Assembly: GCA_049322795.1 (NCBI GenBank)
Contig: JBMOQH010000024.1
Location: 157,846 to 221,845 of the forward strand
Direction of reading: 5' to 3'
Length of the DNA: 64,000 bases
DNA from: Pseudomonadota bacterium
GTDB lineage: Bacteria > Pseudomonadota > Gammaproteobacteria > Immundisolibacterales > Immundisolibacteraceae
Part shown: piece by piece, positions 22,008 to 30,267 of the stretch
How positions within the stretch are numbered: the first letter of the stretch is position 1
How the letters are laid out: each line of letters starts with the position of its first letter
Notes under the pieces: model-generated
Database searches by the model: none
Seen by the model: only the letters and a program-made list of their open reading frames with translations
What the model was told of the DNA's origin: nothing
Translations under genes and position numbers: made by a program

Positions 22008-23195
22008 ATGGCTTTGACGATGCACGCTGCTGACGAGCCGGATGCCGGCGCCGCGAAGACGCCGTTCGATGTGCTCATCGTGGGCGCCGGTCTGCACGGC
22101 GGGCTGATCGCCCTGGCGCTGCTGGACGCCGACCCGGCGCTGCGCCTGGCGCTGATCGAGCGCGACGCCCAGCCAGCCGGCAACCACACCTGGTGCTTTC
22201 ACCGCGGCGACGTGCCGGCGGACGTGGGGGCGTGGTTCGCGCGCCTGCCGCTGACCACCTGGCCGGGGTACCGGGTGGCGTTTCCCGCTCTGGAGCGGGC
22301 GGTGGACCTGCCCTACTGCTGCCTGACGGCCGATGGTCTGGCCAAGGCGCTGCGGGATGCCTTCGCCGGCCGGGATACGGCCACGCTCATGACGGATCAG
22401 GCGGTCGATGCGGTCGGCGAGCACACGGTGCGTCTCGCGGGCGGCCGGGAGCTGCGGGCATCGCTGGTGATCGACGCGCGGGGTGGCAGTACTGTCGGCG
22501 CGACCGGGTATCAGAAGTTCCTGGGTCTTGAAGTGGAGCTCGCCGCCGACTGCGGGCTCGATCGGCCGCTGCTGATGGACGCCCGCGTGGCGCAGGGGCC
22601 GCAGTTCCGATTCATGTACGTGCTGCCGCTGGCGGCCCGACGCCTGCTGATCGAGGACACCGCCTTCGCGCGCACGCCGCAGCTGGACCTCGCCGCCCGG
22701 CGGGCGGCGATAGTCGATTACGCGGCCGCCCAGGGCTGGGCCATCCGCGCCGTGCTGAGGGAGGAATCCGGCGTGTTGCCGATGCCCTGGCAGGCGTCGG
22801 TGTCCGCGCCGGCCTTGCCGCTCACCGTTGGGTATGCCGGCGGTTGGTTCCACCCGGCGACCGGCTATTCAGCACCCTGCGCACTGCGGCTGGCCACGCT
22901 GCTGGCGCGGCATTGGCGCGACCCGCTGCCGGCGCTGACGGCCGAGTGGCGCCGCCATCGGCGGCAGTTCCGGCTGGGGCTGCTGCTGAACCGACTCGCG
23001 TTTCTCGGCTTTCGGCCAGACCTCATGTGGCAGCCGTTCGCGCGCTTTTACCGACTGCCGCTCGCCACCATCGGCCGTTTCTACCGACTGGAAAGCACTG
23101 CATCGGACGTGGCGCGCCTGCTGCTCGGGCGCCCGCCGCGGGGTTTCGGCAGCGCCTGGTTGCCAGGGCGCCCTTCACCGGAGGCTGGATCATGA
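22008..23195 (+). CDS. crtY: Lycopene beta-cyclase (CrtY type)
   Basis: IVGAGLHG, GNHTWCFH, GYQKFLGLE, LMDARV.Q...RFMYVLP, IEDT, FHPATGYS, RFYRLP...I.RFY. Confidence 0.9.
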   Translation: MALTMHAADEPDAGAAKTPFDVLIVGAGLHGGLIALALLDADPALRLALIERDAQPAGNHTWCFHRGDVPADVGAWFARLPLTTWPGYRVAFPALERAVDLPYCCLTADGLAKALRDAFAGRDTATLMTDQAVDAVGEHTVRLAGGRELRASLVIDARGGSTVGATGYQKFLGLEVELAADCGLDRPLLMDARVAQGPQFRFMYVLPLAARRLLIEDTAFARTPQLDLAARRAAIVDYAAAQGWAIRAVLREESGVLPMPWQASVSAPALPLTVGYAGGWFHPATGYSAPCALRLATLLARHWRDPLPALTAEWRRHRRQFRLGLLLNRLAFLGFRPDLMWQPFARFYRLPLATIGRFYRLESTASDVARLLLGRPPRGFGSAWLPGRPSPEAGS

Positions 23196-24268
23196 AGGCA
23201 CAGACCGTTTTGGCCGCGGGGCCCCGGTTGCGGCACGACGGCGCATTTGCAGGGCCTTCGTCGCGGCCGGCGGTGGAGCCGCCTGCGGCGCCCGATCTGG
23301 CCGCGTTTTTCAAGCGGCGGGTCGGCCAACTGCCGCCTGCGGCCGACGTGTGCGAAGGCGTCTGGCAGGACACGCTGTACGCGCCGTTGGCCGAGTTTCT
23401 GGGCCGCCCCGGCAAGCTGCTGCGGGCGCGGCTGGTGCGCCACGGCTGGCAGCTGTCCGGCGCGCGTGGCGAGCCACCGGAAACGCTGTGCCTGCTGCCG
23501 GAGATCCTGCACAGCGCCTCGCTGATCGTCGACGACATTCAGGACGGGGCGGTCGCGCGCCGCGGCGGCCCGGCGCTGCACCGGATGATCGGCCCCGAGC
23601 GGGCCCTGAACGCCGCCAACTGGCTGTATTTCTGGCCCAACCGGCTGCTCGACGAGCTGCGCCTGTCGACCCCGCGCCGGCGCGCCTGTGCAGACCTGAT
23701 CACCGCCACGCTGCTCGACTGTCACCGCGGGCAGGCGCTGGATCTTGGCGGGGAGATCTGGACGCTGCCGCAGGACGCCTTGCCGGCACTGGTGGCCGAG
23801 CAAAGCCGCCTCAAGACCGGCCGTCTGACGGCCATGTGTGTCGGGCTCGGCGCGATCGCCGCCGGGGCGCGGCCCGGGTGCGTGGCGTTGCTGCAACACT
23901 TCGGCGAGCAGGTCGGCGTGGCGCTGCAGATGCTGGACGACCTCACCGCCGTGCTGCTGCCGGCGCGCCACGACAAGGCCGGCGAGGACATCGGCGCCGG
24001 CCGGCCGACCTTCGCCTGGGTGCTTGCCGCGCAGCGGGCCAGCGAATTCAGCTACCGCGCCTTGCAGCAGCAGGCGCGCGCCGCGGCGGGTGGCGACTGG
24101 CGCCCGGTGTGTGCGCAGCTGGCCGAGGTGATCGGTCCGGATGCGCTCGACCATCCCCGCAAGGCGCTGACCGAAGCCGCGGTGCTGCTGAGCGAGGGCG
24201 GCCTGCCGGCGGCCGCCGTGCAGGATGTGTTGACTGACCTCGAACGACTGGAGCGCGCGTATGGCTGA
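23192..24268 (+). CDS. crtE: Geranylgeranyl diphosphate synthase
   Basis: PGKLLR, LHSASLIVDDIQD, RRG.PALH, GQALDL, KTG, LQMLDD; ATGA coupling to crtY. Confidence 0.85.
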   Translation: MKAQTVLAAGPRLRHDGAFAGPSSRPAVEPPAAPDLAAFFKRRVGQLPPAADVCEGVWQDTLYAPLAEFLGRPGKLLRARLVRHGWQLSGARGEPPETLCLLPEILHSASLIVDDIQDGAVARRGGPALHRMIGPERALNAANWLYFWPNRLLDELRLSTPRRRACADLITATLLDCHRGQALDLGGEIWTLPQDALPALVAEQSRLKTGRLTAMCVGLGAIAAGARPGCVALLQHFGEQVGVALQMLDDLTAVLLPARHDKAGEDIGAGRPTFAWVLAAQRASEFSYRALQQQARAAAGGDWRPVCAQLAEVIGPDALDHPRKALTEAAVLLSEGGLPAAAVQDVLTDLERLERAYG

Positions 24269-29248: not shown

Positions 29249-30267
29249 TGCGCCGCGCGACGGATGGACACGGACGCCGGCTGTGGCTGTTCGGTGACGA
29301 TCTCGGCGACCTGCCCGCGCCGGCACGCCCCGACTGGCAGGCCGCCGAGCCACGCTGGATTGCCGGCGCGCTGGCGCAGGCACTGCAGCGGCCCACGGGC
29401 GGCTGGCACGTGGTGACGGCATCGTCTTCGCTGCGCGCGAAACCCCTGGCGGCGCGGGTGCAGGGCAGGGAGCTGGTGCTCTGGCGCAGCGCCGCCGGCG
29501 TGCACGCGGCCGACGACCAGTGCCCGCATCTGGGCGCGCGCTGGTCCGACGGACGCATCGCCGATGGACGGCTCCTGTGCCCCTGGCACGGCCTGGCGCT
29601 CGACGCCCAGTCGCCCTGCACGGCGCTGCTGCCGACGCACGACGACGGCGTCCTGGTGTGGGTGCAGCTGCCGGGCGAGGCGCCGCTGGCCGCCCCGGTG
29701 CTGCCCGAGCGGCCCCGCGATGCGCTCGTCTCCGTGATGACGCTGCCGGCGCGCTGCACGCCGCGCGAGGTGTTGGAAAACCGCCTCGATCCCTGGCACG
29801 GCGCGCACTTCCACCGCCATTCCTTCGCAAGGCTCAAGGTGCTCGAACAGGCCGAGGACAGCATCACGGTGCGCGTGGCCTTTCGCGTGCTGGGGCCGCT
29901 GGCGGTGGAAGTGGACGCCCGCTTCCATTGCCCGCAGGCGCGCTGCATCGCCATGACCATCGTCGGCGGCGAGGGCGTGGGCTCGGTGGTGGAAACCCAC
30001 GGCACGCTGATCGAAGGCGGCCGCTGTCAGATCACCGAGGCGGTGTTCGCCCACTCGGCGCGGCGCGGATTCGCGCTGGCGCGCCGGCTCGGCTGGCTGC
30101 TGCGGCCGGTGATGGGTTTCGCCGCGCGCCGCCTGTGGATCGAGGACGCCGCCTACTGCGAGCGCCGCTACGCACTTCTTGCCCAGCCGGTCGCCGTGCG
30201 CCCGGCGCCGGTTCCCCGTTCAGGTCAGTCACAGGAGCGATCCGATGAACGACACGCTGCTCGATAG
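29248..30267 (+). CDS. crtV: CrtV-like Rieske plus DUF5914 protein
   Basis: CPHLGA...CPWHG Rieske motifs, HDDGVLVWV, NRLDPWHGA.FH, GEGVGSVVETH, LW.EDAAYCERR. Confidence 0.78.
   Translation: MRRATDGHGRRLWLFGDDLGDLPAPARPDWQAAEPRWIAGALAQALQRPTGGWHVVTASSSLRAKPLAARVQGRELVLWRSAAGVHAADDQCPHLGARWSDGRIADGRLLCPWHGLALDAQSPCTALLPTHDDGVLVWVQLPGEAPLAAPVLPERPRDALVSVMTLPARCTPREVLENRLDPWHGAHFHRHSFARLKVLEQAEDSITVRVAFRVLGPLAVEVDARFHCPQARCIAMTIVGGEGVGSVVETHGTLIEGGRCQITEAVFAHSARRGFALARRLGWLLRPVMGFAARRLWIEDAAYCERRYALLAQPVAVRPAPVPRSGQSQERSDERHAAR

Follow-up and report, generated by a model that had tools for sequence, protein, structure and literature searches.

A non-phototrophic Immundisolibacter with a predicted light-controlled operon for a C40 aryl carotenoid

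The locus described here raises the question of whether a soil bacterium that does not photosynthesize makes an aromatic carotenoid and, if so, which one. It lies in a 64,000-nucleotide (nt) window, the whole stretch of DNA that was analyzed, on contig C24 (JBMOQH010000024.1). The genome, of 3.06 Mb, has a completeness of 99.75% and a contamination of 0.35%, and it belongs to an Immundisolibacter species (Gammaproteobacteria), a soil degrader of aromatic pollutants. Eight genes, crtY-crtE-crtI-crtB-DUF2141-crtT-crtU-crtV, run in one direction on the + strand between positions 22008 and 30267, as read from the open reading frames and their translations. On balance, we read them as an operon, controlled by light, through which a non-phototrophic host makes an aromatic C40 carotenoid. 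A light-induced aryl carotenoid, probably a modified one, is the predicted product and is well supported in silico; by analogy with Streptomyces it is likely to be isorenieratene, hydroxylated by CrtV and methylated by CrtT. A first-pass annotation of the window had described eight coupled genes and predicted an aryl carotenoid from them. All eight were recovered in place on the + strand, and the full crtYEIB plus crtT, crtU and crtV set on which that prediction would depend is present. The annotation was silent on two neighbors, a divergent carH and a dxs that overlaps crtV.

The genes of the operon are tightly packed. From crtY to crtV the successive junctions are overlaps of 4, 8, 4 and 1 nt, a gap of 2 nt, and overlaps of 4 and 1 nt, and Pfam and NCBIfam searches support every gene assignment (Table 1). 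The first aspartate-rich motif of CrtE is DDIQD. The second is DDLTA in the window and DDxSG, DDxSS or DDLGS in other loci, and none of the 24 loci with the same gene cassette has DDxxD at this position. Searches of the genome with the window proteins (tblastn) returned no second gene of the CrtI family, nor a second crtY, crtB or crtU, and no other carotenoid-modifying paralog was found in the genome. The whole carotenoid pathway of this organism therefore consists of this one operon.

CrtU is a protein of 490 amino acids (aa), in the range of the short form of this enzyme (about 490-520 aa), and has no Rieske match. It is 47% identical to Streptomyces CrtU over 452 residues and keeps every column that is invariant among 20 diverse CrtU homologs, and its closest relatives bear the JGI label isorenieratene synthase or phi/chi-ring synthase. 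A CrtU relative named “J13 [uncultured bacterium]” (79% identity) led to no functional study. Species-representative genomes were scanned with a CrtU alignment, which confirmed 413 related loci; 80 of these were compared, and cassette genes were counted in the best 54 with enough flanking sequence. Across the 80 loci, which come from many phyla, crtU is mostly embedded in crtY-E-I-B operons, a context that identifies it as an enzyme of carotenoid synthesis, as opposed to a stray amine oxidase. In a maximum-likelihood tree with Thiodictyon CrtU and Calothrix CruE as its root, the short-form CrtU proteins are united in one clade with 100% support against these two sequences. The window CrtU falls in this clade together with the Streptomyces enzymes. 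Streptomyces forms a single branch and Immundisolibacter lies outside it, on a long branch of its own (1.04 substitutions per site) beside a large Gram-negative clade drawn from multiple phyla (support 80). The CrtV tree is congruent with the CrtU tree, which indicates that the two proteins travel together.

The nearest known counterparts are the Streptomyces crtEIBV/crtYTU clusters (S. griseus, S. coelicolor SCO0185-0191 and the S. argillaceus crta genes), which contain the same seven enzyme families as the window. A tblastn search against plasmids returned Streptomyces crt clusters, along with Thiodictyon CrtU (35%) and Calothrix CruE (31%). In S. anulatus and S. atratus, crtY-methyltransferase-crtU lies opposite crtE-crtI-crtB-DUF5914, the classical crtYTU/crtEIBV layout. 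The likeness of the crtT/crtU/crtV trio to that of Streptomyces, pointed out in the first-pass annotation, holds over the full length of the proteins: 47% identity for CrtU, 47% for CrtV (with the DUF5914 protein whose gene follows crtB in S. anulatus) and 40% for CrtT (with the gene in the crtT position of S. anulatus). A B12-binding MerR-type regulator is found near both kinds of cluster, and S. atratus has a MerR gene together with a sigma factor. The Streptomyces genes, however, form two divergent units under extracytoplasmic function (ECF) sigma control, whereas the window has a single coupled operon with no sigma-factor gene beside it, a difference of organization and not of chemistry. 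The window also differs in its extra gene for an exported DUF2141 protein, in the attached housekeeping gene dxs and in its Gram-negative, gammaproteobacterial host.

Synthesis of beta-carotene by CrtE, CrtB, CrtI and CrtY is established for these families, and the four enzymes of the window would carry out the same steps. CrtU, from its orthology with Streptomyces CrtU, would then desaturate each beta-ring and move a methyl group, which turns the rings into the phi-rings of isorenieratene. CrtV, as a Rieske non-heme-iron monooxygenase, would hydroxylate the aromatic ring, probably at C3/C3′, and CrtT would methylate after CrtV to give hydroxy- and methoxy-isorenieratenes, both steps as proposed for S. 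argillaceus. Expression of the S. argillaceus crtaEIBV/crtaQYTU genes in S. albus yields isorenieratene, beta-isorenieratene, 3-hydroxy- and 3,3′-dihydroxy-isorenieratene and new mono- and dimethylated derivatives, the major product being the dimethylated form (PMC5993118); Becerril et al. (2018) suggested that CrtaV hydroxylates and CrtaT methylates (PMC5993118). Together with the orthology of CrtU, CrtV and CrtT, this makes the same chemistry the best prediction for the window, and the modified product suggested earlier would agree with it. In an aerobic bacterium that degrades polycyclic aromatics, the pigment would give protection from photo-oxidative damage.

Several points weigh against this reading. 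According to work on S. griseus cited in PMC5993118, CrtV and CrtT are both dispensable for isorenieratene, and the roles given to them are proposals without knockout proof. In Streptomyces, clusters of the same type often stay silent or give beta-carotene as their main product (PMC13505331), and no pigment or expression data for any Immundisolibacter were found in the literature. No gene for a ferredoxin or reductase partner of CrtV lies in the operon region (20991-32176). The long branch of the Immundisolibacter CrtU leaves room for a shift in ring regiochemistry. Finally, the best NCBIfam match of CarH, NF052513, scores 123 bits, under the cut-off of 400 bits; this model is narrow, and the low score weakens the equivalog status of CarH and not its claimed mode of working.

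It is rather unlikely, in our estimate, that beta-carotene or some other non-aromatic carotenoid is all that the operon makes, with crtT-crtU-crtV poorly active or acting on another substrate. Beta-carotene is the compound measured from the homologous cluster in Streptomyces sp. Mg1 (PMC13505331), a carotenoid clone from soil environmental DNA is on record as a beta-carotene producer (PMC11998277), and a CrtU on so long a branch could fit such an outcome. The invariant columns of CrtU are nevertheless all retained, and the S. argillaceus cluster does give aryl products. In addition, crtT-crtU-crtV is translationally coupled to crtB and is kept in all eight genomes of the genus, which argues for selection on function.

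The predicted tailoring of isorenieratene would begin with CrtV. The Rieske residues C92, H94, C111 and H114 and the mononuclear-iron residues D181-x2-H184-x4-H189 and D300 are invariant in an alignment of 40 sequences. An AlphaFold model of CrtV (predicted local distance difference test score 92) combines a Rieske domain with a helix-grip catalytic domain and matches the alpha3 Rieske monooxygenases GxtA, SxtT, KshA and DdmC, the last a dicamba monooxygenase (Foldseek probability 1.00, ~300 columns, TM-score about 0.52-0.59). A profile search of PDB sequences found the same proteins, matched via the Rieske domain. CrtV has the two-domain fold and the ligand set of these enzymes, but its identity to them is 15-21%, sequence similarity is detectable in the Rieske domain only, and its substrate, unlike theirs, is presumably a C40 aryl carotenoid. 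On the strength of the modeled fold, then, DUF5914 is the catalytic domain of a Rieske oxygenase; no literature on DUF5914 was found. Electrons for CrtV could come from other Rieske systems in the genome.

We consider it unlikely that CrtV acts mainly as an electron acceptor or redox partner of CrtU and not as a tailoring hydroxylase. The operon has no reductase gene, crtV adjoins crtU in 43 of the 54 best loci, and a Rieske domain sits inside the CrtU and CruE of phototrophs. Moreover, crtU and crtV are fused in one reading frame in three loci (L013, L067 and P0065), and further long proteins with a C-terminal CrtV part turned up in an exhaustive search. However, the full mononuclear-iron site is kept, a feature of no use to a simple electron carrier, hydroxylated products appear when the whole cluster is expressed (PMC5993118), and CrtU of S. 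griseus is active without CrtV, as cited in the same paper.

A combination of the two roles may be proposed, although we think it rather improbable: CrtU and CrtV could form a self-contained redox couple in which electrons from the beta-ring pass to the Rieske cluster of CrtV and there serve the O2-dependent hydroxylation of the same aromatic ring. Such a couple would explain why no reductase or ferredoxin lies beside CrtV, as well as the adjacency, the fusions and the Rieske domain built into the phototroph-type enzymes.

As a separate observation, a Rieske cluster accompanies the ring aromatase in every case (L083, 5785-7689; L084, 5770-7722; L013, 9001-11565; L067, 4847-7309). In purple-sulfur CrtU and cyanobacterial CruE it is inserted in the flavoprotein, and in the short-form enzymes it is present as a neighboring CrtV or as a C-terminal fusion.

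The regiochemistry of the rings bears on whether isorenieratene is the parent compound. We judge it quite unlikely that CrtU, like cyanobacterial CruE, forms chi-rings or a phi/chi mixture (renieratene or renierapurpurin type) instead of pure isorenieratene. The isomer mixtures made by CruE differ by taxon (PMC7395447), regiochemistry is unreadable from sequence alone, and the Immundisolibacter branch is, as noted, a long one. On the other hand, the window CrtU lies in the short-form clade with the Streptomyces phi-ring enzymes. CruE and the CrtU of purple and green sulfur bacteria share its flavoprotein fold and aromatize beta-rings. CruE and the purple-sulfur CrtU, however, are only 31-35% identical to it and have 634-650 aa, with a Rieske domain inserted (residues 329-392 in Thiodictyon, 346-403 in Calothrix) that the window CrtU lacks. 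They also come without a separate CrtV or CrtT and sit among photosynthesis genes, with pufBA adjoining the Thiodictyon gene.

The regulatory region of the operon would fit control by light. The motifs of a B12-binding CarH are legible in the translation of the divergent gene, W-x9-EH (WARGELEVFEEH) and E-x-H-x-x-G (EPHTLG), and carH is kept in the related loci L001 and L002. In the 102-bp region between carH and crtY, two near-palindromes, TTTGTCTAAGGCAAA and TTTGTCTAGGACAAA, flank the promoter-like sequence TTGACA-17-TAATTT and are candidate CarH operators. The hexamers and both palindromes are common to three Immundisolibacter species, including those of L001 and L002, and the sequence between them diverges. 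A consensus promoter scan listed no promoter on the + strand, so that TTGACA-17-TAATTT rests on manual reading and cross-species conservation. In the dark, CarH with bound adenosyl-B12 would occupy the two palindromes, and light would free the promoter. The intact CarH and the conserved candidate operators make light induction of the operon, put forward in the first-pass annotation, plausible.

The taxonomy of the host was derived from the nearest loci and from Dxs. The nearest loci belong to Immundisolibacter metagenome-assembled genomes (MAGs), which share the gene order and have 81-90% CrtU identity. The nearest named Dxs is that of Immundisolibacter cernigliae (86% identity), indicating that the genome represents another species of the same genus and not an actinobacterium. 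The flank order metH, carH, crt, dxs is repeated in other Immundisolibacter assemblies, one of them a single-contig genome, and this recurrence of gene arrangement and flanks means that the locus is neither chance nor an assembly chimera. An actinobacterial or chimeric contig, considered as an alternative, is therefore rejected as having a negligible probability: the G+C content of the crt region (0.72-0.74) is slightly above that of the genome (0.69), but contamination is only 0.35%, the signal peptide of the DUF2141 protein points to a Gram-negative host, and the synteny is found in several assemblies.

The first-pass annotation had remarked that no photosynthesis genes occur in the window, and this extends to the whole genome as far as reaction centers and bch genes are concerned. 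Searches for type II (PF00124) and type I (PF00223) reaction-center genes found no match genome-wide, and the positive control, Synechococcus elongatus, matched in both. The four PF00148 matches are NifD, NifK, NifE and NifN, each over its equivalog cut-off, and not BchNB/YZ. Hidden phototrophy was rejected on these grounds. Rhodopsin (PF01036) also gave no match in the genome, a weak result because the control genomes were silent too. The genes nifD, nifK, nifE and nifN are found on contig C11 (69982-83459), and this Immundisolibacter lineage of polycyclic aromatic hydrocarbon degraders appears able to fix nitrogen.

The crtYEIB-(DUF2141)-(crtT)-crtU-crtV cassette is dispersed throughout diverse phyla, including the Gemmatimonadota, Myxococcota, Acidobacteriota, Latescibacterota, Planctomycetota and Spirochaetota, in addition to other Gammaproteobacteria. 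In these uncultured carriers the gene order is identical to that of the window and CrtU identity is 50-57%, but CarH is mostly missing and dxs is unattached. Among the best 54 loci, crtV is adjacent to crtU in 43, crtT is present in 30 and DUF2141 in 18; all three occur together in Immundisolibacter, in four Latescibacterota loci and in one MAG of unassigned phylum (L005). The view, drawn from the first-pass annotation, that the crtT/crtU/crtV trio is specifically actinobacterial and rare is not supported, given the same cassette in at least seven other phyla and trees of both CrtU and CrtV in which Immundisolibacter does not fall within the Streptomyces branch. Within the lineage of the host, every one of the eight Immundisolibacter genomes has crtU and 33 other relatives all lack it, which points to a single gain of the crt cluster at the base of the genus.

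Aryl carotenoids had also been described as otherwise a product of green and purple sulfur bacteria. These are indeed producers, but cyanobacteria and actinobacteria are as well (PMC7395447), and CrtU (K09879) is listed, from annotation only, in non-phototrophic Myxococcota (PMC10576062). With these sources on record and the cassette so widely spread, the occurrence of the operon in Immundisolibacter is less surprising than first held: the cluster type is known, the host lineage is new, and Gram-negative carriers of this kind are very many.

Because their precursors are made by green and purple sulfur bacteria, isorenieratane and similar aryl isoprenoids found in rocks are taken as a sign that the water was both sulfidic and sunlit. 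The operon of the window and the 413 loci across non-phototrophic phyla suggest a much wider potential for aryl pigments, and several of the lineages that carry crtU derive from sediment metagenomes. Cyanobacteria and actinobacteria as sources already weaken the sulfidic-water reading (PMC7395447). No chemical tests of these Gram-negative lineages were found in the literature searched. The cultured type strain of the genus, that of I. cernigliae, also carries crtU in its genome, which makes it a practical organism for a first chemical test, and the genus could help to assign functions to CrtV, CrtT and DUF2141.

Table 1. Features of the carotenoid locus, in order of position in the window.
Feature	Position	Strand	Support
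carH/litR-type MerR-family B12-binding light-responsive repressor	20991-21905	-	Pfam MerR_1 and B12-binding
Control region	21881-21958	+	-35 TTGACA 21900-21905, 17-nt spacer, -10 TAATTT 21923-21928; read from sequence
crtY, lycopene beta-cyclase	22008-23195	+	TIGR01789, 285 bits (cut-off 215, equivalog reached); PF05834
crtE, polyprenyl (geranylgeranyl diphosphate) synthase, cassette-specific subtype	23192-24268	+	PF00348 (polyprenyl_synt)
crtI, phytoene desaturase	24261-25757	+	TIGR02734, 634 bits, family cut-off reached
crtB, phytoene synthase	25754-26674	+	PF00494 (SQS_PSY), 215 bits
DUF2141 protein with N-terminal export signal	26674-27090	+	PF09912
crtT, UbiE/MenG-like S-adenosylmethionine methyltransferase	27093-27779	+	PF01209; further methyltransferase models
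crtU, short-form enzyme of isorenieratene synthase type (beta-ring desaturation and methyl shift), flavin adenine dinucleotide amine-oxidase fold	27776-29248	+	PF01593
crtV, Rieske [2Fe-2S] and DUF5914 non-heme-iron oxygenase	29248-30267	+	PF00355 and PF19299
dxs, 1-deoxy-D-xylulose-5-phosphate synthase	30245-32176	+	TIGR00204, 788 bits

The DUF2141 protein has a hydrophobic N-terminus ending in AHA|MD, and most of its homologs in crtU clusters (27 loci besides the window) have lipoboxes. The family also adjoins crtG in Sphingomonadales (PMC5989583, PMC9241875), and no solved DUF2141 structure was found. Since the protein carries an export signal and recurs beside carotenoid genes, our guess is that it is an envelope accessory of carotenoid pathways, which might assist in positioning or transporting the pigment within the cell envelope. 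By lineage, the Acidobacteriota have DUF2141 without crtT, the Gemmatimonadota have crtT without DUF2141, and the Latescibacterota and Immundisolibacter have both.

The neighboring dxs starts 23 nt inside crtV, is present in a single copy in the genome and is found at the same position in L001-L004. From its sequence, it looks like a foreign gene that may have come in together with the crt cluster or next to it and displaced the native one. Its best named relatives beyond the genus come from Myxococcota/Deltaproteobacteria (66-70% identity), and the dxs genes of other genera in the same family are only 52-54% identical to it. On the other side of the operon, carH directly adjoins a - strand gene (17097-20822) that, on recognition of its N-terminal sequence, we take to be metH, encoding the B12-dependent methionine synthase, so that two B12-dependent proteins are encoded side by side; the same adjacency is seen in L001. 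Downstream of dxs, a Rieske dioxygenase alpha/beta pair (32212-34084) is kept in L001 (91-93% identity) and has no match in L002, and it is thus no fixed part of the carotenoid locus.

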